Shown piece after piece: positions 2,935 to 62,903 of a stretch of 64,000 nucleotides of DNA. The DNA is taken from the IMG/VR virus record IMGVR_UViG_3300012001_000008, positions 1 through 64,000 of that record; one strand, 5' to 3'. Source of the stretch: a virus. A program made the translations under genes and the position numbers. The notes under the pieces were generated by a model. The model ran no database searches and had not been told where the DNA came from. It saw nothing but the letters and a program-made list of their open reading frames with translations. Positions within the stretch are counted from its first letter, which is position 1, and each line of letters opens with the position of its first letter.

Positions 2935-3088
2935 CTCCCAGTCCTCGCTCGACACCTAAGCGTCCTAACATTCTAAGCGCGTACTCGCGTTGCCTTTCGG
3001 CATTCTCTAGCGCCTGTTCCCAATGCTCTCTCTGTAGAGGGCTAAGTTCCTGTGGGACTGGTAGGTAGCGCACGTTATCCTTTTCCAT
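2921..3088 (-). CDS. Small hypothetical protein, 55 aa (MEKDNVRYLPVPQELS...), probably leaderless
   Basis: Read from the sequence (below ORF-track cutoff); ATG 6 nt after TATAAT. Confidence 0.65.
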   Translation of the reverse strand: MEKDNVRYLPVPQELSPLQREHWEQALENAERQREYALRMLGRLGVERGLGDGEG

Positions 3089-3100
3089 ATCTTTATTATA

Positions 3101-4078
3101 CTATGAATAAACTTTTCCTTCAAATAGTAATTCACCTCTGTGGATTGGGGCATGGTCGAATGTATATTGACCTTCTCCAAAGTCGCGAATGACCATAGCG
3201 CTCTGTTGCCAGTTCTCGTAGCGCTCTACTGGCTCGTCATTGTGGTCTACACCAGAGTGGTAAGAGGGAACAATGCCATCAATACGACATAGCGCTCCGA
3301 CAACAAAGGCTCCGAAAGCATGACCGCGACGGTCTGTGTGATATTGTGTTTCGGCGCGGTGGGCGTGTCCTTGCACAACATGACGGTCTGGGTTCTCTTT
3401 GCCTAGCTTAAAGGCGGTCGAGCCAGAGGCTGTAGCAATCGTACCGTGCATAAAGGCGAGGTCATCAGCATATTGATATTCAGCAGCTCCATACCCTCCA
3501 TGGAACTCCCAGCCAATTTCCTCTAGTCTTAGAAGGCGATTCAGCTTAAAGTCTGGTACTTCGGCGAGAACGCCTGCATGTTTCAAGATATAATCTCCCC
3601 AGCGTTTTGCATGATTAGAATCGACGAGATGACGCTCTGCTTCTGGTGTTGCCTCCGATAGTCGCGCGTGCCAGTCATGGTCTGCCTGCAAAGATGGTGC
3701 AAGTGTGTTCTGGAAGTGAGTAGAGTCTGGTGCGAAGCGAGATAGTTCAGCGAGGTCAATATCGTCACCTAAATCTGCTAAAACATCTGGGTGTAGGTTT
3801 CGCGCGAGAGATAATACTGCATTCATAGCCTGTACGTCGTGTAGAGGCTCCATACGCTCTCCGATTCTACGAAAGCCTATTTGTGTGTCTCCAAAGGCTA
3901 GGATTGTCTTAGCGCCGATTTTACGCGCTCGTTTGCGGTTGAACTTTAGTGGAGATATTTCTACGGGCTTGATTTCTGGTACTGTCTCGTAGCTGTGGTT
4001 CATGGTCGTAGACCATTCATTCGTTTCGCGGTTAAAAGCGGAAACTTCCCACTCTTTTCTAAGTTGTCGTTCAGACAT
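3101..4078 (-). CDS. Calcineurin-like metallophosphoesterase
   Basis: Motifs GDTQ, LGDDID, SNH, MHG, GHAH in canonical order. Confidence 0.8.
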   Translation of the reverse strand: MSERQLRKEWEVSAFNRETNEWSTTMNHSYETVPEIKPVEISPLKFNRKRARKIGAKTILAFGDTQIGFRRIGERMEPLHDVQAMNAVLSLARNLHPDVLADLGDDIDLAELSRFAPDSTHFQNTLAPSLQADHDWHARLSEATPEAERHLVDSNHAKRWGDYILKHAGVLAEVPDFKLNRLLRLEEIGWEFHGGYGAAEYQYADDLAFMHGTIATASGSTAFKLGKENPDRHVVQGHAHRAETQYHTDRRGHAFGAFVVGALCRIDGIVPSYHSGVDHNDEPVERYENWQQSAMVIRDFGEGQYTFDHAPIHRGELLFEGKVYS

Positions 4079-4212
4079 AGTCTATAATCTCCTAATTTTT
4101 TGTGTTTTGAATTAGATTATAGGCTCGTCGGACTTGGGTATCTGTACTTAGTATAGCAATACAAAAAGCCAGCTAAAAAACTGGCTTGAAAGGTAATAAT
4201 GTGTGATAATTT

Positions 4213-4289
4213 TGGTGGGACTGGAAGGACTTGAACCTTCGACAATCTGCTTAAGAGGCAGCTACTCTAACCAACTGAGCTACAATCCC
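4213..4289 (-). tRNA. tRNA-Lys(CTT)
   Basis: Cloverleaf GGGATTG...CAGTCCC-A-CCA; anticodon loop CT-CTT-AA. Confidence 0.95.
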
Positions 4290-4519
4290 ATATGTTTGCA
4301 AGAACCGACCGTGCGCGTGGTTAAGGCACAGTTGATACAGTAGATTCTTATGTACTGAAAAGAGCGTGCTGGCATAAATACGTTTACCATTTCATTACAG
4401 CAAAAGCAACGAGGGCGACCATATTCTGCTATGAACTTGTCAATGAACTCGTGATTCAACAATCCTGGACGAACGTGCCGTCTTGCAGGTAAATCTGTTT
4501 GTTTTTTGACTATATCCAT
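4280..4519 (-). CDS. Small Cys-rich (zinc-finger-like) protein inside the tRNA cluster
   Basis: 79 aa, CFCC...CINC; TATAAT-N6-ATG; stop overlaps tRNA-Lys. Confidence 0.55.
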   Translation of the reverse strand: MDIVKKQTDLPARRHVRPGLLNHEFIDKFIAEYGRPRCFCCNEMVNVFMPARSFQYIRIYCINCALTTRTVGSCKHMGL

Positions 4520-4609
4520 ATTTCTATTATAAGGAAAGTGCTTAGGGAAGTTTTCGATATACTTTCACGAGGCAATTCCTGCTGGGTTTGCTCCCTATTG
4601 GCATAATTA

Positions 4610-4684
4610 TGGTGGAGTCGCAGAGAATCGAACTCTGGTTTCCTGCGTGCAAGGCAAGAGTATTAGCCACTATACGACGACCCC
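4610..4684 (-). tRNA. tRNA-Ala(TGC)
   Basis: Cloverleaf with G3:U70, loop CT-TGC-AC, encoded CCA. Confidence 0.95.
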
Positions 4685-4689
4685 ATATT

Positions 4690-4766
4690 TGGTGCCTTTG
4701 GAAGGACTCGAACCTTCAACCGCTTCGTTCGTAGCGAAGTACTCTATCCAATTGAGCTACACAGGC
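4690..4766 (-). tRNA. tRNA-Arg(ACG)
   Basis: Cloverleaf, loop CT-ACG-AA, encoded CCA. Confidence 0.95.
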
Positions 4767-4769
4767 ATT

Positions 4770-4844
4770 TGGTGGGCGATGTTGGATTTGAACCAACGAC
4801 TGGCAGTATATAAGACTGCTGTTCTGCCCCTGAACTAATCGCCT
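4770..4844 (-). tRNA. tRNA-Ile(TAT)
   Basis: Anticodon arm GCAGT-CT-TAT-AT-ACTGC, encoded CCA. Confidence 0.9.
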
Positions 4845-4850
4845 ATATTT

Positions 4851-4926
4851 TGGTAGCTCCCATGGGATTCGAACCCATACTTGAGGCGTTAGAACCACCT
4901 TGTCCTATCCGTTAGACGAAAGAGCT
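4851..4926 (-). tRNA. tRNA-Arg(TCT)
   Basis: Anticodon arm AGGTG-GT-TCT-AA-CGCCT, D-loop GGATA, encoded CCA. Confidence 0.9.
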
Positions 4927-5152
4927 ATATTTCTGCTTTAAGGTACTTGTTGAGCAACTCATTTATCTGGTTTATATGAACCATTCCTGATTGCGACAAC
5001 GCTATTTCGCCGAAGTGCCTACGAAGGACTTCGAAACCCTGTTCTAAGGCTTGCGCCTCTTCTTCTATTGTAATCTTTCTAACGTCTCTTAACAAGTCCT
5101 CTGCTTGGCGACGGATAAGGTTCTCATCTGGGTCTTTGCGATATGCTTCCAT
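4925..5152 (-). CDS. Hypothetical protein (75 aa, MEAYRKDPDE...) inserted between tRNAs
   Basis: 3' part of ORF 4925..5296; ATG 6 nt after TATAAT; the upstream extension overlaps tRNAs. Confidence 0.7.
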   Translation of the reverse strand: MEAYRKDPDENLIRRQAEDLLRDVRKITIEEEAQALEQGFEVLRRHFGEIALSQSGMVHINQINELLNKYLKAEI

Positions 5153-5166
5153 ATCCCTATTATACT

Positions 5167-5244
5167 TGGTGCGAGCGCAGGGAATCGAACCCTGTTCTTC
5201 TGGTTGGAAGCCAGACATAATATAAACCAGTATACTACGCAAGC
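5167..5244 (-). tRNA. tRNA-Gly(TCC), atypical acceptor stem
   Basis: Arm TCTGG-CT-TCC-AA-CCAGA; two mismatches in acceptor stem; encoded CCA. Confidence 0.85.
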
Positions 5245-5247
5245 GTA

Positions 5248-5324
5248 TGGAGCCGTGTTTCGGATTCGAACCGAAGACCTGATGCTTACAAAGCAACTGC
5301 TCTAGCCAACTGAGCTAACACGGC
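5248..5324 (-). tRNA. tRNA-Thr(TGT)
   Basis: Cloverleaf, loop TT-TGT-AA, encoded CCA. Confidence 0.95.
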
Positions 5325-5370
5325 ACGTCCAGGTGTTTAACGAGCTTACCCTGAAAGCTCAATAATTACT

Positions 5371-5446
5371 TGGTTGCGGGGGAGGGATTTGCACCCTCGA
5401 CCTTTTGCTTATGAGGCAAACGAGCTAACTACTGCTCCACCCCGCA
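5371..5446 (-). tRNA. tRNA-Met(CAT), initiator-like body
   Basis: GCGGGG/CCCCGC acceptor, GGAGCAG..AGCTCG D-arm, loop CT-CAT-AA, T-loop TGCAAAT. Confidence 0.9.
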
Positions 5447-5449
5447 TTA

Positions 5450-5525
5450 TGGTGGTTCGTGTAAGACTCGAACTTACGACAACTGGTATGTAACACCAGC
5501 GCTCTACCAACTGAGCTAACGAACC
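5450..5525 (-). tRNA. tRNA-Val(TAC)
   Basis: Arm CTGGT-GT-TAC-AT-ACCAG, encoded CCA. Confidence 0.95.
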
Positions 5526-5530
5526 GTACT

Positions 5531-5607
5531 TGGTTGGCGAGGAAGGACTTAAACCTTCGACCTCCTGTGTATCGGACAGGCGCTCTAATCAACTGAGCTA
5601 CTCGCCA
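5531..5607 (-). tRNA. tRNA-Ile(GAT), atypical loops
   Basis: Arm CCTGT-CC-GAT-AC-ACAGG (C33), T-loop TTTAAGT, encoded CCA. Confidence 0.85.
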
Positions 5608-5616
5608 TTATTCACA

Positions 5617-5970
5617 TTAAGAAATAATGTTGTTTGGGTCAAGGTAAGAAATGGCGTAGTTGTTATCTATCATCCACTTATTCACATTAACACCGTTGCT
5701 GATAATAATACCTAACCAACGCCCATACTTCTCTTTTTCGTCCTTGATTGTCTGTAGGGTGATTTGTTCACCTACTTGGATTTGAGTGAGTAGTGCGTCT
5801 CTAGAGGCTTCCCCCTGTGGTTTGGTGACACCTCTGATTTCAGGTGCATTTATTCCATAAATCCTAATTTTTAAGTTGCGCATTGTCATGTAAAGACCGA
5901 GGTCTACATCTACTGTGATTGTGTCTCCGTCATAGACCGAGACTACTGTTGCATTGTATATATAATTCAT
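5617..5970 (-). CDS. Thermonuclease (SNase)-family nuclease
   Basis: VYDGDTI, IRIYGINAPE and KYGRWL motifs. Confidence 0.85.
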   Translation of the reverse strand: MNYIYNATVVSVYDGDTITVDVDLGLYMTMRNLKIRIYGINAPEIRGVTKPQGEASRDALLTQIQVGEQITLQTIKDEKEKYGRWLGIIISNGVNVNKWMIDNNYAISYLDPNNIIS

Positions 5971-5990
5971 ATACTAATTATAGCAGTATT

Positions 5991-6065
5991 TGGTGGAAAT
6001 GGTGGGATTCGAACCCACGCTCGTTTGCTTAAAAGGCAAGTGCTGTACCGTCTAGCTTCATTTCC
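5991..6065 (-). tRNA. tRNA-Lys(TTT)
   Basis: GGAAATG/CATTTCC acceptor, loop CT-TTT-AA, encoded CCA. Confidence 0.9.
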
Positions 6066-6069
6066 TTAT

Positions 6070-6092
6070 AAAAAAGGAGCTATTGGCTCCCT
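6070..6092 (-). terminator. Intrinsic terminator (attenuator) immediately before the tRNA operon
   Basis: AGGGAGC-CAATA-GCTCC-TTTTTT, ending 4 nt before tRNA-Lys(TTT). Confidence 0.75.
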
Positions 6093-6124
6093 ATCGTTTT
6101 AATACTAATGTAAAAAAGATAGGG
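6089..6124 (-). promoter_or_regulatory. Antiterminator hairpin overlapping the terminator
   Basis: CCCTATC right after the leader stop codon pairs with GATAGGG, which includes the terminator 5' arm; inner TTTTA/TAAAA extends the stem. Confidence 0.65.
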
Positions 6125-6214
6125 TTACAGTTTGGCTTTGCCTCCACGAATGGCTACAGCAAAAGACGCCACTGTTGTGGTTCGCTTTGTCATAGTTGCT
6201 ATTGCTGCACTCAT
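6125..6214 (-). CDS. Putative attenuator leader peptide MSAAIATMTKRTTTVASFAVAIRGGKAKL
   Basis: 29 codons, ATG 6 nt after the TATAAT of promoter 6221-6249; 25 of 29 residues are amino acids carried by the downstream tRNAs. Confidence 0.7.
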   Translation of the reverse strand: MSAAIATMTKRTTTVASFAVAIRGGKAKL

Positions 6215-6220
6215 ACCCCT

Positions 6221-6294
6221 ATTATACATCATCGCGAAAATAAACACAAGCCCAATTTATTCTACTTGTGTTTTGGACATAAATAGCGCATACT
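6221..6294. promoter_or_regulatory. Back-to-back divergent promoters
   Basis: Minus: TTGTGT(6249-6244)-N17-TATAAT(6226-6221). Plus: TTGTGT(6266-6271)-N17-CATACT(6289-6294). Confidence 0.8.
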
Positions 6295-6302
6295 TAATTT
6301 CA

Positions 6303-6569
6303 ATGGATGACTTCAAGATAGGGGACATAGTTACGTCCCCACACACCAAAAAGCGCGAACGATATGGTAACGGAATGGTCATAGCTACTAAAGGCAAAGA
6401 AGAACCTATCATAACGGTCATCTTCCTCATGCAAGACCGAACATTTTTCACCCATAACTTTAGACAACATGAGTTGAAACTAACAGAAATTGACTGGGCA
6501 GAACGCCGACAGATTGAGCAAGCGAGAGACCTCCATAATAGTATCTTAAACGAGACATTTTCTATATGA
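6303..6569 (+). CDS. Hypothetical SH3/KOW-like small protein (MDDFKIGDIV...)
   Basis: 3' part of ORF 6132..6569, downstream of the promoter. Confidence 0.7.
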   Translation: MDDFKIGDIVTSPHTKKRERYGNGMVIATKGKEEPIITVIFLMQDRTFFTHNFRQHELKLTEIDWAERRQIEQARDLHNSILNETFSI

Positions 6570-6628
6570 AAAAGCTTGTGTTTTGGATAAAAAAAGAGCA
6601 TAATTGCAAGCCAGAAGGGTTAAACAAA

Positions 6629-6826
6629 ATGGCGAACAAAAAAAGCGGTCTCGAAAAATACAAATTAAAATACGAAGACAGCGCTCGTAAGTTCCGATTA
6701 AGTCCAACCTTCGGGCAAAAACAACCTTGGGTAGTTAGGGGATGGGACGCAATTGTAGGGGCATTTGCATACTTCTTTTATAACGTATTCTTGGCAATAA
6801 AAATAATCATAAAAGAGGTAATGTAA
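6629..6826 (+). CDS. Small membrane protein (MANKKSG...)
   Basis: Follows promoter 6576-6604; hydrophobic C-terminus. Confidence 0.6.
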   Translation: MANKKSGLEKYKLKYEDSARKFRLSPTFGQKQPWVVRGWDAIVGAFAYFFYNVFLAIKIIIKEVM

Positions 6827-7200
6827 TGTTCGACGCAAATATATTGTACTACGCTTACGATAACTTAGACGGAGACGACTTTGGTGTGGGCTACCTATCA
6901 AACAAAGAAGCATGGATTGAGCGTGTTAATAGTTGGGGTCGTAACAATGGTACGCGTAGCGATTTCACCATTGACGATTTCGAAGAACTTGACGCGACCG
7001 ACTTGCAGGGCGTTTTGCTCGCAGAAGTTGAGCCAATTGATAGCGACCATTTAGTGACTTGGGTCGTGGGCGAAGACGAGTTTTCTGTACAGATTGACAA
7101 AAAAGGCGACATTATTTGGAAAAATAATTCAACCAAAACAACCTCTGTTCCACGTTGGTTAAGTCGCCTAAAAAGAACACTAAAAGAATACAAAGTTTAA
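6826..7200 (+). CDS. Hypothetical protein
   Basis: 124 aa, GAGG RBS, coupled to upstream stop. Confidence 0.75.
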   Translation: MFDANILYYAYDNLDGDDFGVGYLSNKEAWIERVNSWGRNNGTRSDFTIDDFEELDATDLQGVLLAEVEPIDSDHLVTWVVGEDEFSVQIDKKGDIIWKNNSTKTTSVPRWLSRLKRTLKEYKV

Positions 7201-7291
7201 CAAAACGCTTGTGTTTTTAGAAAAAAAGAGTTATAATTGATTCCAGTGAACGACAAAAGAGCGTCACAAAAACAAAGAAAGGCTCAAAATA

Positions 7292-7546
7292 ATGAGTAAA
7301 AAAGAAGTATCGGAACCAAAAGTCACTAAGGCTCAACCCCTTGAAGACGAGAACAAGCAAGCAAAAGGTGTCTTCGTTCGTGGTATAATCGGAATAGTGT
7401 TGCTATTAGTCTTTGGAAGTATAGTCTTTAGCACCGTGGTCATTTGGAATGGCACGGACAACCCAATGTTTAAGATATTGGTTGCCCCACAAGCCATCTT
7501 TGCCCTAGTAATTGCCTTCGTAGCATTTTCAAAAATACTTAAATAA
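7292..7546 (+). CDS. Two-TM membrane protein
   Basis: Promoter 7209-7237, AAGAAAGGCT RBS, two hydrophobic helices. Confidence 0.75.
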   Translation: MSKKEVSEPKVTKAQPLEDENKQAKGVFVRGIIGIVLLLVFGSIVFSTVVIWNGTDNPMFKILVAPQAIFALVIAFVAFSKILK

Positions 7547-52467: not shown

Positions 52468-54117
52468 TCACGAAACATCTCCCCTCTTATTAACAAAGAT
52501 TTTGAGGGTTCGTCCGTCGTCCTGTAGTGAAGCCTCGACTTGCTTATTAGCATTCCAGAACACTACTTCGCGTCCGATACCCATACCGTTGCCGTGGCAA
52601 GATGGGCATTCGAAACGTCCAGGCTGTCCAGAGATATAGATAGTTCCTACGCCAAGACAAGCGTCACAGATAGTATTATCAATAATCTCTAGGCGAGTGA
52701 CGTTAGATAAGTTTTCCATCGTTTTCCTCATCTCTATAGTCTTTAGCCCATTCTTTCAATTCTTCCGATACATGAGAATAAGCTTTCTTCTCATCATCCG
52801 TGTTGTCGTACTCTTCGCTCTTGTTCTCAACCCAGCCGTCAATCATTTTGGCAAAAGCCTCAAGAACATTTGCGGTTTGTTCGTTATTACTCATTCCAAG
52901 CCCTCTTGAATCGTGCTTGATATGCAGAACGCCCCATACCAGTTTGTGCCACGCATTGTGCTTCAAGTTCGGCTTCGTAGTCGGCAGAGTTCATAAACTC
53001 CTCTTGCACCTTACGAGCCACTTGCTTAACAACAATATGTTGTGGGCGATTAACTGGCATGTGACGTACTATTTCACTCCTGTATCCCATTGAGACAGCT
53101 TCCGCTTTAGTCTTGATGACTATGTCTTCGATGGTTGGGTATTCGACGGTTATTGTAGTTTTCATTGTTATAAGCCTTTCTTATTTGCCTTATAACTAGA
53201 ATTATGCGCCTTTTTCGCCGAAAACACAAGCCCTTTGTTAGGCTTTTTGTAGTTTTGGTTGAAACCGAGCGTCGTTATACTCTTGGATAGCCTCGATAAT
53301 TAGTCGGGGGTTATAACGATTGCTGATTGCGCGAGCAATGGTAAGGGAGCTACATCCAGCTTCGTGCATTGCTGCATATTCTGCCTTCAAGGTTTCCTTA
53401 ATTTGTTCGTTAGTTCTACGAATCATATTGTCCTCCTTTCTTTACAACACCAATTATGGGGTTATTTATAGGAAAACACAAGCCCAATTTATAAAAACTT
53501 GTGATTACACTTGCGACACACCGTAACTTTGTTCAGATACAGTCCTACCGCCGTCTTTAGTAATCTCAGTGACAACTTTGCGCTTAATTGCGCCACAATT
53601 AGGGCATTTTATCTTACCGCTATTGACTATAAGTGCAACTGGGACATAGACTACAATAAATAAAATTGGAGTAATAACAAAGATTGCGAATAGTATCCAG
53701 AGAATCGTGTTATTATAATTAGCCTGCTCTTGGGCAAGGACTAATGATTGGTTATACGCTTGTAATGTATCCATATTTTGAATTATGCTCTATTTTTTAT
53801 AAAAACACAAGCACTAGCTTTTTGCACCACCGTGGAAGGCTGCGTAGAGCAAGATTCCAGCAATTATAAGTAGGAATAAAATCGTCATAATACTGCCTTG
53901 CAGTTCTTCGTCATTCAACAATGATAGTAGTCTTTTCACTTGGCTTTTCCTTTATCGCTTTAACAATTTCTATTGCTATCTGTAACCCATTATGAGAACC
54001 AAATCGAAACCATTTAACACTTCTCTCATCGGCGACATCTATTTCAAGCTTCTTAACATCGACGAGCTTGAGCATTTCCACCAATTCTTGTTTTTGTTTT
54101 TTAGTTAGATTCACCAT
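52468..54117 (-). CDS. Small hypothetical genes (52468-52719 DnaJ-type CxxCxGxG, 52703-52894, 52887-53165, 53238-53426, 53505-53774 TM plus zinc ribbon, 53911-54117)
   Basis: ORFs, four of them directly behind their own promoter copy or variant (53201, 53453, 53782, 54132). Confidence 0.65.
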
Positions 54118-55220: not shown

Positions 55221-55918
55221 TTATTTTCCATCGCGTTCCTCACCAAACCATTTTTGGGTATCTGCCCATAGGTTCTTTATATTTTTATCAAGTAGTTCGT
55301 AGGCATAGCAACATGCGCAACGAGAACTTACTGGGCTATCTTTGAGTTCTGGAAAGTCCTCTAAGTCTAAGACTTCGCAACGCTTTCCCCATATTTTAGA
55401 ATAGGCTTTCTCAACCTTGCGCTTAAATACTTCGAAGTCTTTATCCATACTTCTATTATAGAGTATCGGTAGTATGTCCGCAAGCGTCATGTGTATTATT
55501 ATTCATCACCTCACGTTCTTGCTCGCACCAGTTACACTTCTCATAATGCCAATACCAACGAGACTCCTTGTCATCACCAACACCAGCGAATTGCCAGTTA
55601 TGGTTACAGGTCATTTGCTTCCATACCTTCTGTAGCTCAACTAAAAACATATTATTAACCACGGAAGCCCGCAATCTTACGCATATTTACTTCTGTGTTA
55701 TGCTTTGCTGTCTTTAGGTCATATAAGATATTATGGATAATTTGTCGTTCCTCGGAAGAGTTGTTATCGGTTAACTCCTGCATAAGCCCAGCACGAACTT
55801 TCTGTATCTCTTCTTGCGCGGCATACTTGCCTTCGAGGTCGGTGAACTTAATGTTCATCAGGCGTTCAATCTCGTATTCCTCACGCTTTGTTTCATCGAA
55901 TTGTTTTAAGTCTGTCAT
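55221..55918 (-). CDS. Small hypothetical genes (55221-55448, 55456-55653, 55655-55918)
   Basis: ORFs behind promoter 55952-55980. Confidence 0.6.
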
Positions 55919-58603: not shown

Positions 58604-60064
58604 TTATTCTTCACCGCGAATGATGTGTGATTCAAGTTCTTCGAGTTCTTCTTCTGTGGCGAGGCGCTCTTCATCTACTGGGAAGTCATCACTTCCGTAC
58701 ACGTCTAGGGCATCGTCAAAGCGTTCAAGTTCTGCAAAAATAAAAGCACCAATTCTTCGTTTGATAGTTTCAATTTTGTCTGATATTTTTTCTACAATTG
58801 GTGGTTTTTCCATATCGCTATTATACCTTATTTATGTTTGTACACTAGTTCTTGGATTATCACCGCTACACCACTCATTATGAGCGTATAGATGATAAAT
58901 GTCAATATACTAGTTGAGATGAGGATTGCGAATAGTCCCGCAACCCATACAGATACACAGTAGAAGCAACTAACAAGGTCATATAGCCCACCTGAGCGCT
59001 TCTGCCGTTTAGCGAGTAAGGCTCTAGCGCGAACAAAGATGTCGAGTGGACCACGTTCAGTCCATAGGATTCTTGATAAGCGCCAGACACCTACTCCGAG
59101 TAGTACTAGAAGCCAACAATCCATCGTATGAGCTTAACCGTTACGGCTACGATAATTGCGACGATACAAAGTCCGATGACTATGCCAGCCACTCTCGCAG
59201 CTTTGCCGTCTTGTGGTTGATTTACCATTACACTTCCTCCATTTCGATTTCGTTATCTTCCTCTACCTCTTCTGGGTGTTCCTCAATTTGCTTGAGACGG
59301 TCTTCGTGGCTAGAAATTGCATTCTTGTACACGTTGATACGACCTTGGTGGAACATCTTTTCTACTTCGACGGTGTTAACCTCTTTTAGCAAGCCTTCGA
59401 GGACAGCCTTACAGTCTGCGTAAGAGTAGTAAGACATGGCAATAGGCTGGATTTCTTTTTTCAGTCCATTAATCATAAAGCTATACTTAACCTTGCCTGG
59501 CTCAAGCGAGCTAGTGCTAATCTGCACGGTATAGTCGAGAGTGTTGTCCTTAAATGCGAGACGGATTACCTTGCGTACAAGCTTCTCTAGCTCGATGACG
59601 CTCTCTGTTGGTGTTGATGGTTTTGCCATTAATGTGCCTTCCTAAATGCTTTTTTTGATTTTGCTCGTGCAAGTTGCAACGAATGAGTTGATTTTGTGTA
59701 TTTTGGGTCAGTCGCTGGACGCTGACGACGAGCTGCGCGAGTCTTAATGACCATGTTGCCATCATTGTCGAAAGTAGTGATACCACCATGTTCTGCGAAA
59801 TACTCGATTTCCTCTTGGGTTAGTTCTACTTTTGCCTGTTCCATACTATGCTACTTCCGTGAAGTCGATGTAGTAGCTTTTCCCTACAACAAACTGGTCT
59901 GCTGTTGACTCTTGCACTAGACCCATTTCTAAGACACCACTTGGCGTGTACTTAAAGAAGGTCGCATTCTCTGCGCTTGAGCCAATAACTGCCGTTAAGC
60001 GTACTCGGTAGCCGTCTTTGACCTCTGTTTTAGATTCTACTGTGAACTTTGCTCGTGTTGCCAT
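58604..60064 (-). CDS. Hypothetical genes (58604-58813, 58828-59124 DUF1360-like membrane protein with CFYC, 59228-59629, 59629-59844, 59846-60064)
   Basis: Closely spaced ORFs on one strand. Confidence 0.65.
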
Positions 60065-60859: not shown

Positions 60860-61924
60860 TTATTTATTCCTACCTACTATTATATCGGTTCGGTCATTAG
60901 AGAACTTTAGCCGTGCGCAGATGCCAATGTTAATCTCGCGCGAGATAGCTCTCTGCTGTTCATAGCTAATATAACCATACTCGCTAAACTTACGAGATGC
61001 TGGCATAGATACCTTTTCTAGCCACTTCTTCCAACGAGCATCTACATCGTCTTCCTCGAAGAAGATTGGATTAGCATGAGAAGCTTCCATATCGAATCCA
61101 TAGTGACTCTTTTCGTACTCGTTACCAACTGGCTTGTACTGGTTTAACATGAACGAAAGCTCTGGTAGCATAAAACGAAGTACACCAAAATCTTCCATCA
61201 ACTGAATACCAGTACTGGAATACTCACCCATAAGTAGCTTATCTATCTCTTGTACCCAGCGCTCTCTTGATACGTCTAAAATACGAGCTGCAAGCTGTCT
61301 TGCCTTACCAGTAAAGTTTGGGTCAACAGTGAAGCCGTAACGCGCTGCAAATCGAGCTGCACGAAGCATACGGAGAGGGTCTTCCTGAATCCTATCCTTT
61401 GGAAGTCCAACTGTAACAATCTTCTTTCCATGAATATGTAGCTTACCACCGTATGGGTCATAGATAGTTCCGTCTGGGCGAAGCACCATAGCGTTCATCG
61501 TGAAGTCACGGCGAGCAAGGTCTGAATCAATATCTGTCACAAAAGTAACATCAGGTTGACGGCTCTTGCTCGTATAAACCTCGGTGCGGAAAGTAGTTAC
61601 CTCTACATATTCATAAACGGTGTGAAACTCCTTGTACCTTTCTACGTCACCCCATACCTTCTTCATTTCTTCGTTTGTTGGAACCTCAACTGGAACCTTG
61701 AAACCGATAGTGCCATGCTTCTTGCCATTACCAACAAAGTAAGCGTGGCGTCCAGCGTCATGCACGAGCTTCTCCATTTCTTCAACAAGTAACGGGGTGG
61801 TGAAGTCGTAGTCCTTCGGAGTATTGCCCATAACGATGTCTCGCACTGCGCCACCAACAAGATATACCTCGTCTGTACCGAGAATCCTTATTACTTCTTG
61901 CTGAATTGCTAGTGCCTTTTCCAT
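60860..61924 (-). CDS. cca: CCA-adding tRNA nucleotidyltransferase family enzyme
   Basis: YLVGGAVRD, DYD, EVTTFR, DLARRDFTMNAM, EDPLRMLRAARF, SRERW; no obvious HD domain. Confidence 0.9.
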   Translation of the reverse strand: MEKALAIQQEVIRILGTDEVYLVGGAVRDIVMGNTPKDYDFTTPLLVEEMEKLVHDAGRHAYFVGNGKKHGTIGFKVPVEVPTNEEMKKVWGDVERYKEFHTVYEYVEVTTFRTEVYTSKSRQPDVTFVTDIDSDLARRDFTMNAMVLRPDGTIYDPYGGKLHIHGKKIVTVGLPKDRIQEDPLRMLRAARFAARYGFTVDPNFTGKARQLAARILDVSRERWVQEIDKLLMGEYSSTGIQLMEDFGVLRFMLPELSFMLNQYKPVGNEYEKSHYGFDMEASHANPIFFEEDDVDARWKKWLEKVSMPASRKFSEYGYISYEQQRAISREINIGICARLKFSNDRTDIIVGRNK

Positions 61925-62217
61925 TACTTCTTAATCCCTAACTTTAGGTCTACTTTTTTGTATAATATCTGTGCGACGGCTTTTATAACCCTATCGTCGA
62001 ATGCTTCTTCTTTTGAAAGCCAATATAGTGAACGGCTCTTTACGGCTTTGTCAATTAAGTTGTCCATACTTAACTCGTCTGGTAGCAACTGCTTAACACG
62101 CTTATCTACTAGGCTTTCAATAGAAGCCTCAACCATGTCACGGATTTCTTGCTTTGTGATTCCCACTTCGTTATAAATAGCGTTGCGGAGTCTGTTTAGG
62201 TCTTGTTTATCTGCCAT
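61924..62217 (-). CDS. Hypothetical protein
   Basis: 97 aa, coupled on both sides. Confidence 0.65.
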   Translation of the reverse strand: MADKQDLNRLRNAIYNEVGITKQEIRDMVEASIESLVDKRVKQLLPDELSMDNLIDKAVKSRSLYWLSKEEAFDDRVIKAVAQILYKKVDLKLGIKK

Positions 62218-62903
62218 TACATATTCTCTTTTCTAATCTTATAAAGAAGTGCGTCAATCGCCTTCCAGTTTGGTTCGTCTGGGAGAACCGATACAATGTA
62301 CTCCATCTTCTTGTCCTCGGCGATGAATGCGTCCACAACAGTGTCTGGCGTTTGCTCACCCATCTTAAATAGCCACTCGCGCTGTTCTGGTGTTACTCGA
62401 ACAGTTAGTTCACCAGTCTCTAGTAGCTGTCGCGCCTGTAATAGAAGACGGAAACAGTGTCGAGTATGCTTGGCGAAACGGTTCTTTAGGGCGCTATCAT
62501 AGCCGTCCTTACCTTCTGCTTGGCGACGGCTAAGGCTAAGTGCCTGTCCCATGGCGTAGCCTCTGTACGCATTCATAACAGCCTTAGTAGACAAAAATGC
62601 CTTGCGGTTCTCTACTAGTAGCTTGCCAATTGGCGATAGGATTGTGTATTCCTCTAGCCATAACAGTTCTGAGACTGTTGGGTTTCCGCCGATGACTAGT
62701 TTCATAAACTTACCCACCTCGTGATATACCCAGTCTGGGTCTGTGTGGTCTACGGTTGTCTTAGCTGGATTAAAACTTAAAGATAACACATCTTTCGTAG
62801 GCAATAGGTAAACACCCTTGATGTCTACATCAGAGTTCTCTGTTGCGAGTCCGTAGGCTGTTGAACCTGTTACGCCTTCTAGAATTATGTTATCTGGCTT
62901 CAT
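62217..62903 (-). CDS. Pol-beta superfamily nucleotidyltransferase (YcgL/RlaP-like)
   Basis: GSTAYGLATENSDVDIKG, GNP, KHTRHCFRLL. Confidence 0.85.
   Translation of the reverse strand: MKPDNIILEGVTGSTAYGLATENSDVDIKGVYLLPTKDVLSLSFNPAKTTVDHTDPDWVYHEVGKFMKLVIGGNPTVSELLWLEEYTILSPIGKLLVENRKAFLSTKAVMNAYRGYAMGQALSLSRRQAEGKDGYDSALKNRFAKHTRHCFRLLLQARQLLETGELTVRVTPEQREWLFKMGEQTPDTVVDAFIAEDKKMEYIVSVLPDEPNWKAIDALLYKIRKENM

Follow-up and report, generated by a model that had tools for sequence, protein, structure and literature searches.

Leader ORFs that list the isotypes of downstream tRNA genes in an uncultured phage and its relatives: a putative ribosome-mediated attenuator

Phage tRNA genes are usually viewed as constitutive codon-usage helpers or as decoys against tRNA-cutting defenses. 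Leader-peptide attenuators are known from other genes: the enterobacterial thr leader carries Thr and Ile codons, and the ilvGMEDA leader carries Ile, Leu, and Val codons, making both multivalent. trpL is the subject of the four-region attenuation model, and the pheM leader controls a synthetase (pheST) and senses Phe codons only. T-box elements bind uncharged tRNA directly and have no open reading frame (ORF). We analyzed the first 64 kb (positions 1 to 64,000; here “the window”) of a 72.9-kb IMG/VR virus record, IMGVR_UViG_3300012001_000008, which comes from an uncultured phage and is rated 56% complete. On its minus strand, a 29-codon leader ORF and two overlapping hairpins stand between a promoter and an array of 11 tRNA genes. 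Judging from the sequence and from folding models, we consider it likely that these elements constitute a ribosome-mediated transcription attenuator on the sole promoter leading into the array. The features of the region are as follows.

6221-6249, minus strand: leader promoter, with TTGTGT (6249-6244), a 17-nt spacer, and TATAAT (6226-6221), read from the sequence
6125-6214, minus strand: leader ORF, with ATG at 6214, 29 codons, and TAA (6127-6125), read from the sequence; open in relatives G001 to G004 and L087
6132-6147, minus strand: 16-nt box GGAGGCAAAGCCAAAC in the last leader codons, containing GGAGG
6089-6124, minus strand: antiterminator hairpin, with 5' arm CCCTATC(TTTT) (6124-6114) and 3' arm (AAAAC)GATAGGG (6100-6089), from folding and RNAalifold
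6070-6092, minus strand: intrinsic terminator, with AGGGAGC (6092-6086), loop CAATA, GCTCCTT (6080-6074), and T6 (6075-6070), from a terminator scan
5991-6065, minus strand: tRNA-Lys(UUU), the first gene past the terminator, with no promoter in between
4213-5607, minus strand: the 10 other tRNA genes, in array order Ile-GAU, Val, Met, Thr, Gly; Arg-UCU, Ile-UAU, Arg-ACG, Ala; Lys-CUU

An earlier note on this DNA, made from the sequence alone, had placed the promoter, the 29-codon ORF, the hairpins, the terminator, and the 11 tRNA genes at these minus-strand positions, and all of them are there. The array (4213-6065) was called with ARAGORN and confirmed with Rfam, and the leader lies between the promoter and tRNA-Lys. 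The core of the antiterminator is a pairing of CCCTATC (6124-6118), which begins right after the stop codon, with GATAGGG (6095-6089). The antiterminator and terminator stems share positions 6092-6089, and 4 nt separate the end of the T6 tract (6070) from the start of the tRNA (6065).

In the mechanism that we propose, a ribosome reaching the stop codon would cover CCCUAUC and thereby leave the G-run free, the terminator would form, and RNA polymerase would halt 4 nt ahead of tRNA-Lys(UUU). With a ribosome stalled at a codon for Ala, Ile, Thr, Met, Lys, Arg, Val, or Gly, or with a ribosome that never loaded, CCCUAUC would pair with GAUAGGG; this pairing would strip the terminator of four of its seven pairs and permit read-through into the tRNA genes. 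The supply of tRNA would in this way be coupled to the decoding of matching codons. Candidate triggers are a host tRNA-cutting defense, loss of host tRNA during infection, and feedback from the phage's own tRNAs; a purpose in countering anticodon nucleases is speculation.

Like the thr and ilvGMEDA leaders, this locus has a short promoter-proximal ORF that spells several amino acids, followed by mutually exclusive stems between which the position of the ribosome would decide. Unlike those leaders, it would control phage tRNA genes and not biosynthetic enzymes, it lists all eight isotypes of its block, mostly without long runs of a single codon, and its mRNA appears to begin at AUG. It also differs in having three RNA elements, a predicted default of read-through, and no 1:2 protector stem. 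With pheST it would share the principle that a component of translation is under leader-peptide attenuation and that decoding capacity in this way adjusts its own supply, but here the product is tRNA itself and eight isotypes would be sensed. As with a T-box, read-through would be coupled to tRNA status through a choice between antiterminator and terminator; unlike a T-box, the element has an ORF and gave no T-box match.

The leader peptide of the window is MSAAIATMTKRTTTVASFAVAIRGGKAKL. Ala, Ile, Thr, Met, Lys, Arg, Val, and Gly make up 25 of its 29 residues, or 24 of 28 once the initiator Met is set aside, and none of the eight is missing; the same eight amino acids account for 50.2% of the window's long ORFs (binomial tail, 9.6e-5). 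The composition is also extreme when set beside other stretches of the same phage, a comparison that the earlier note had proposed: 12 of 13,478 same-length stretches of the window's own long ORFs were equally rich in the eight residues, and none of 13,426 proteome windows was both as rich and in possession of all eight. Among 289 other short ATG-ORFs (20 to 45 aa, six frames), a count into which the leader itself entered only as an upstream-extended 35-aa form, none was as rich as the leader. Codons for 10 of the 11 anticodons occur in the leader and none is readable by tRNA-Arg(UCU), which agrees with the earlier tally of residues and anticodons and with its remark that AGA is missing. By itself, the match in composition would still be a post-hoc pattern; the comparative evidence is decisive.

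Relatives were found among uncultured phages. A megablast search of GenBank phages matched one tRNA only, and in a sensitive blastn search 37 records matched the tRNA part of the query only, the leader being covered in none. The terminase had no match above 28% identity among 11 GenBank phage records, and there was no cultured relative among them. In IMG/VR, five relatives (G001 to G004 and G006) were reached via the terminase, which is 87% identical to that of the window phage in G001 and 51% identical in G006, and via the CCA-adding enzyme (55 to 70% identity). The 16-nt leader box retrieved seven true leader loci in 34 IMG/VR stretches, including a lineage (L085/L087) with a leader of 38 codons. 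A metagenome scan with the same box, over at least 120 stretches, gave one true leader among the matches listed, identical to that of G003. Relatives based on a metallophosphoesterase yielded six loci with no tRNAs nearby, and G005 (46% complete), which had one weak tRNA match only, was left out. Comparisons of the leader that heads the array in the window (leader 1) cover six copies, those of the window, G001 to G004, and L087.

The unit is kept in six related uncultured phages: G001 to G004 and L087 carry the same leader family in the same layout, as the earlier note would have it, and G006 has a leader of different sequence. In all six leader-1 copies, TATAAT-N6-ATG opens an ORF of 28 to 38 codons whose stop lies 0 to 1 nt ahead of the first arm, and a G-run common to hairpin and terminator is followed by a T5-6 tract and then by tRNA-Lys(UUU). 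The promoter hexamers and their spacing are likewise kept in five relatives. In these five relatives, the stop is followed within 0 to 1 nt by (A)CCCT(T)AT and then by a long A/U-rich hairpin, and a short G/C stem takes the 3' G-run of that hairpin as its 5' arm. All six copies keep the frame open at a mean column identity of 63%, and the position of the stop (TAA or TAG) is kept; the +1 frame contains two to six stops. At the C terminus, five of the six copies read (I)RGGKAK(L/Q), and G003 reads GGKAKL.

Complete relatives carry 23 to 28 tRNA genes arranged in blocks, and in G001 to G004 each of three blocks is headed by its own mini-ORF, located 6 to 7 nt past a TATAAT box. Block 1, after leader 1, encodes Lys, Ile, Thr, Gly, Arg, Val, Met, and Ala tRNAs. 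Block 2 encodes Glu-UUC and Tyr, plus Glu-CUC in G001 (in G004, only Glu was called, with no call for tRNA-Tyr), and block 3 encodes Trp, Asp, Asn, Pro, Phe, Cys, Leu, Ser, His, and Gln. The three isotype sets thus split the 20 amino acids as 8 + 2 + 10. Leader 2 has 13 to 14 codons and is of a YYEEE type (MINSNTYYEEESNL, MSKTYSYEERVTE, MTNSVSYYEEEYNS, and MSNVYYSEERITD); it lies directly before tRNA-Glu, with tRNA-Tyr next in three of the four phages. Leader 3 has 24 to 30 codons (for example, MSNLFSHLQPSLLWNCPDQFGIGV). The fraction of residues belonging to the leader's own set is 0.83 to 0.96 for leader 1, 0.33 to 0.46 for leader 2 (background, 0.088), and 0.71 to 0.83 for leader 3 (background, 0.41). 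All eight isotypes are covered in each of six leader-1 copies and all 10 in each of four leader-3 copies, and coverage of this kind was found in 0 to 5 of about 13,500 proteome windows.

We pooled the residues of the three leaders of one phage and redealt them 100,000 times. The observed numbers of own-block residues were 51/71, 48/63, 49/64, and 50/67, compared with shuffle means of 24 to 28, and were reached in none of the 100,000 deals for each of the four phages, which are not four independent events because the phages are related. The three leader classes inside one phage are, on the other hand, independent of each other. Leader content thus follows the tRNA set, as the earlier note had suggested checking, in two further leaders that match their own blocks. 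G006 appears to add one case of co-variation between leader and tRNAs. It has no separate Glu-Tyr block; its tRNA-Tyr belongs to the last block, and the leader of that block (MKANTSQQQLNCNHWSLTPDYFSVGANEYNS) has two Tyr codons, and its tRNA-Glu ends block 1, whose leader (MKNTVVTIERMKTDAKGGAISKRTFTIYNS) includes a Glu. This case is weakened by a Glu that leader 1 likewise contains in G001 and G002 and by a Tyr in the leader-3 tail of G004.

The hairpins were then considered from the side of folding. With the window sequence unmasked, the predicted fold contained the CCCUAUC/GAUAGGG hairpin, and the terminator was reduced to a 4-bp remnant; with the ORF and a further 12 nt masked, the fold contained the full 7-pair terminator at -9.2 kcal/mol, so that folds with and without masking differ as had been anticipated. 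In a footprint scan, a ribosome of about 29 nt (-15 to +13 relative to the first base of the A site) was slid along the ORF, and the mean pair probability of the terminator, P(terminator), was recorded. Without a ribosome, P(terminator) for the six copies of leader 1 was 0.16, 0.47, 0.13, 0.19, 0.27, and 0.01. It rose to 0.93 to 0.96 in all six once the A site was at the stop codon, in keeping, within the model, with the earlier claim that a ribosome at the stop favors the terminator. For stalls in the first 24 codons or so, it was mostly low, apart from single-codon peaks that reached 0.77 in G003 and 0.65 in G001. In this model, leader 1 is a three-element switch with default read-through.

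Leaders 2 and 3 behaved differently in the same model, with P(terminator) at 0.84 to 0.99 without a ribosome and likewise at the stop. For leader 2 it fell to 0.01 to 0.10 with the A site at codons 3 to 9, a range within which the Tyr codons of three of the four phages lie, and for leader 3 it fell to 0.01 to 0.03 around codons 5 to 14 in three of four phages. In leader 3, the 5' arm of the antiterminator lies within the last codons and, by eye, changes jointly with the terminator arm between phages: GCGCUCGG pairs with CCGAGCG in G001 and G003, and AUUGGUG pairs with CACCAAU in G002. The relatives' leaders 2 and 3 are thus predicted to resemble trpL, terminating without a ribosome and at the stop and losing the terminator only at certain internal codons. 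Unlike trpL, the window's leader 1 is without a protector pairing, its targets are tRNA genes, and many amino acids would be sensed.

Alignment of the six leader-1 sequences gave support to both stems. Over the full stretch, RNAalifold returned the antiterminator (12 pairs, 3 compensatory); with the first arm removed, it returned the terminator (7 pairs, 3 compensatory), which has four alignment columns in common with the antiterminator. In the antiterminator, 87.5% of cells were paired, compared with 49 to 67% when the helix was slid, and the covariation score of 0.344 was reached by none of 500 shuffles. In the terminator, 83.3% of cells were paired, and the covariation score of 0.448 was reached by 6 of 500 shuffles.

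The leader promoter is the sole upstream entry into the array, because the neighboring gene is divergent: a plus-strand ORF of 86 aa (6309-6569, MDDFKIGDIV...), with a counterpart in G001 and no Pfam family, is probably the real neighbor, and a 56-aa minus-strand ORF at 6300-6470 is probably not real. The consensus scan missed the leader promoter, as TTGTGT agrees with TTGACA at only three of six positions. TG sits directly 5' of TATAAT, and we dropped the label of an “extended” -10 element since this TG abuts the hexamer without the usual 1-nt spacer. Upstream of the leader there is an inverted repeat, ACACAAG...CTTGTGT (6244-6285). Its reading as a terminator of the upstream gene was rejected, given that this gene is divergent, and it looks more like a pair of -35-like boxes that face each other and would serve the leader and the gene at 6309, respectively. 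We also noted a 19-nt identical copy of this box region at 53474-53492, with 6575-6605 also concerned, and a box, CTTGTGTT, that recurs ahead of leaders in the relatives.

The start of the leader ORF is close to its promoter. Counting from the end of TATAAT, base 7 is the A of the ATG in each of the six leader-1 copies, and in leaders 2 and 3 the gap is 6 to 7 nt. At sigma-70 promoters, transcription normally starts at that distance from the -10 element. With its ATG 6 nt past TATAAT, the leader mRNA is probably without a 5' leader, and an AUG at the 5' end would load a ribosome once the end of the mRNA emerges. No conserved Shine-Dalgarno sequence was found between TATAAT and ATG of the leader-1 copies. 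The arrangement is frequent in this phage: the window has seven TATAAT-N6-ATG sites, each of them on the minus strand, compared with 0.68 expected, and none of 100 shuffles reached seven.

3086-3100, 4517-4531, 5150-5164, 5968-5982, 6212-6226, 55446-55460, and 58811-58825, minus strand: TATAAT-N6-ATG sites

The six sites other than that of the leader start ordinary ORFs of 55 to 117 aa. Shine-Dalgarno-like motifs are present at 24 of 33 long ORFs, compared with 11.5% of random 17-mers. It appears from these sequences that promoter-proximal genes of the phage start at AUG and internal genes keep Shine-Dalgarno-like motifs.

A number of observations weigh against the attenuator, and several concern the array itself, into which ORFs are inserted.

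5617-5982, minus strand: SNase-like ORF of 117 aa with an internal TATAAT-N6-ATG promoter (5982-5968), PF00565 (E = 4.3e-07), inserted in the array
4925-5164, minus strand: 75-aa ORF with an internal TATAAT-N6-ATG promoter (5164-5150), no Pfam family
4280-4531, minus strand: 79-aa ORF with an internal TATAAT-N6-ATG promoter (4531-4517), its end overlapping the start of tRNA-Lys(CUU)
4156-4187, minus strand: array-closing terminator, a 9-bp stem and then a T-rich tail, from the terminator scan

The internal TATAAT boxes that the earlier note gave as a caveat are real, and each starts an ORF. These three promoters may supply 10 of the 11 window tRNAs independently and so bypass the switch. Only two minus-strand terminator-like sites were found in 3500-7500, that of the leader and the one at 4187-4166 that closes the array; since the internal promoters may feed the other genes and no terminators lie between the inserted ORFs, only tRNA-Lys(UUU) would be strictly dependent on the switch. 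In G004, however, the corresponding tRNA block is almost without interruptions, and for this reason the insertions look secondary.

Other adverse points lie in the leader. The idea that its codons match the encoded tRNAs held at the amino-acid level only and was not significant for synonymous choice: within the eight amino acids, 18 of 24 codons are readable by phage anticodons compared with a background of 0.62 (P = 0.14). AGA and AGG are absent from the window leader despite the encoded tRNA-Arg(UCU); AGA stands at codon 4 in four of the five other leader-1 copies. Several amino acids occur just once or twice, and sensitivity to a mild shortage would therefore be low. The 16-nt box is nearly invariant, GGAGGCAA(A/G)GCCAAAC, with 15 of 16 columns the same in all six copies and A or G as the variable base, and the attenuator model does not explain it. 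Differences between leader-1 copies by codon position are flat (0.26, 0.30, and 0.31), with no third-position excess and no classical coding signature. Moreover, all six copies have two antisense frames that run open through the leader, and none of four sequencing runs containing the DNA was an RNA run.

The remaining adverse points come from the folding. The model is one of equilibrium with a rough ribosome footprint. In the minimum-energy fold of the window and of G001, the antiterminator stands alongside a 4-bp remnant of the terminator; in G002, G003, G004, and L087 this remnant measures 2 bp or is missing, and complete exclusion of one stem by the other is found in four of six copies. The P(terminator) of 0.47 without a ribosome belongs to leader 1 of G001, and the ribosome has little effect on leader 3 of the same phage (minimum, 0.66). 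For leader 1 of G006, the model gave no antiterminator, with P(terminator) at 0.96 to 0.97 at every ribosome position. The slid control is weak for the terminator, where helices at +1 to +3 still pair in 78 to 81% of cells because a G-run faces a C/U-run.

An alternative to the attenuator would be a small gene with a leaky terminator, in which a short basic peptide has its own job, the hairpins serve only to finish its mRNA, tRNA-Lys is made by constitutive partial read-through, and the composition match is incidental. The moderate conservation of the peptide, with its C-terminal RGGKAK(L/Q) or GGKAKL, is what such a gene would show, and the other TATAAT-N6-ATG sites in the window do start ordinary genes. 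The conservation of this C-terminal stretch is at the nucleotide level, however, and therefore indicates an RNA or positional role. A small gene would also leave unexplained why the three leaders match their own blocks to a degree that no shuffle reached in any of the four phages, why the stop abuts the first arm, and why one G-run is common to hairpin and terminator. We regard this explanation as improbable.

Slightly less probable still, in our view, is an RNA-only element, in which the ORF is untranslated and the hairpins either serve processing or stabilization of the tRNA precursor (by RNase P, E, or III) or act as a fixed partial terminator. The flat codon-position differences, the open antisense frames, and the lack of a conserved Shine-Dalgarno sequence before the ATG would all fit an untranslated element, but the antisense frames are open because the leader codons start with a purine. 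An untranslated element would not account for a frame that stays open in six of six copies at the identity given above, with ATG spacing and stop kept and stops in the +1 frame, nor for an amino-acid content that tracks tRNA isotypes in three leader classes, which is a property of the reading frame only. T-box-like direct sensing, in which codon-like triplets of the leader bind anticodons without translation and stabilize the antiterminator, could draw on the triplets cognate to 10 of 11 downstream anticodons, but these all lie in one frame between ATG and stop, the element of about 150 nt has no specifier-loop architecture, and 6066-6260 matched no T-box or other Rfam family at E up to 1, making this explanation very improbable. 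A wider Rfam search, over 3900-6700 at E up to 1, gave only tRNAs and chance matches, with no T-box and no curated leader family (Thr, His, Trp, Leu, etc.).

The array of the window is likely not the full tRNA set of its phage. Gene order downstream of block 1 is common to the window and its relatives. The G003 homologue of window ORF 118-552 ends 1.8 kb ahead of leader 2; in the window, 117 nt are left past this ORF before the contig ends. Most likely, then, the contig breaks off before blocks 2 and 3. The other 9 kb of the record, beyond the window, contains no tRNA genes.

Several other features of the window and its relatives deserve mention. The 79-aa ORF (4519-4280) covers the first 10 nt of tRNA-Lys(CUU) (4289-4213), and G001 and G003 have a homologous ORF in the same place with the same overlap. 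For the SNase-like ORF, no close relatives were found in IMG/VR. The 16-nt leader box, with its position near the stop, could be a pause signal for the ribosome or for the polymerase. In block 1 of the relatives, there are odd tRNA-like genes (L051 4462-4536, L051 3043-3124, and L055 4623-4693) to which ARAGORN could assign no three-base anticodon or in which the variable region is over-long. Relatives also have a conserved, ORF-poor stretch of 300 to 450 nt that separates the leader-3 terminator from tRNA-Trp.

L051 13230-13530: ORF-poor stretch, relatives only
L052 16680-17100: ORF-poor stretch, relatives only
L053 6600-6990 (reverse): ORF-poor stretch, relatives only
L055 13690-14130: ORF-poor stretch, relatives only
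L212 4545-4780 (reverse): ORF-poor stretch, relatives only

These stretches have the motifs TTTAACAA, GACGGACAAGGCT, and GATGGGTAGCGAG in common. In the one copy searched (L051), Rfam gave no match at E up to 1, and the stretch may be a structured RNA under the leader-3 attenuator. Finally, near the end of the window, genes for two enzymes acting on RNA lie close to each other.

60860-61924 and 62217-62903, minus strand: region of the CCA-adding enzyme (PF01743 and PF12627; phrog_2244) and of the RlaP RNA-repair nucleotidyltransferase (PF10127), from Pfam and phrog_2244

Since it encodes both of these enzymes, the phage also invests in the repair of tRNA ends. Taking the leaders and these enzymes together, we lean, with less assurance than for the attenuator itself, toward a three-channel gauge of decoding capacity. 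Three leaders on mRNAs without a 5' leader would share out the 20 amino acids, each gating its own tRNA block, and loss of any host tRNA, whether through an anticodon nuclease, host shut-off, or codon demand, would cause the matching replacement block to be made, with the RlaP-type and CCA-adding enzymes repairing tRNA alongside.

Among tRNA arrays, the closest parallel that we found is cellular. The trn operon of Anabaena is a silent array of 26 tRNA genes that is induced under translational stress (PMC8421152, PMC10272220), and the title and abstract of the 2023 paper assign its control to the repressor TrcR (PMC10272220). In the 2021 text, neither “attenuat-” nor “leader” occurs (PMC8421152), and in the 2023 text there is no occurrence of “attenuat-,” “leader peptide,” “ribosome stalling,” or “uORF” (PMC10272220). 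The phage locus would resemble this operon as an accessory tRNA array that is switched on when translation is impaired; unlike it, the locus belongs to a phage. Supplementary files aside, we found no published account of leader-peptide control of tRNA genes in the open full-text literature. A limited look by eye at the tRNA region of phage T5 (20000-50000 of its record), covering one promoter-to-tRNA gap and nine small ORFs, found no codon-matched leader. The novelty would lie in attenuation applied to tRNA genes, with a leader that lists the isotypes of each block.

The element, at about 190 nt, is a portable test object, and it offers a natural example of attenuation on mRNAs that would begin at AUG, as the promoter spacing indicates. 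It also supplies a sequence rule by which regulated tRNA arrays may be sought in metagenomes, namely, that the residues of the leader are the isotypes encoded downstream. If the three-channel gauge is true, it would be the first attenuation system with tRNA itself as its output. If the attenuator reading is true, then the phage would gauge decoding directly and reply with the tRNAs in short supply, and translation would feed back on the transcription of tRNA.

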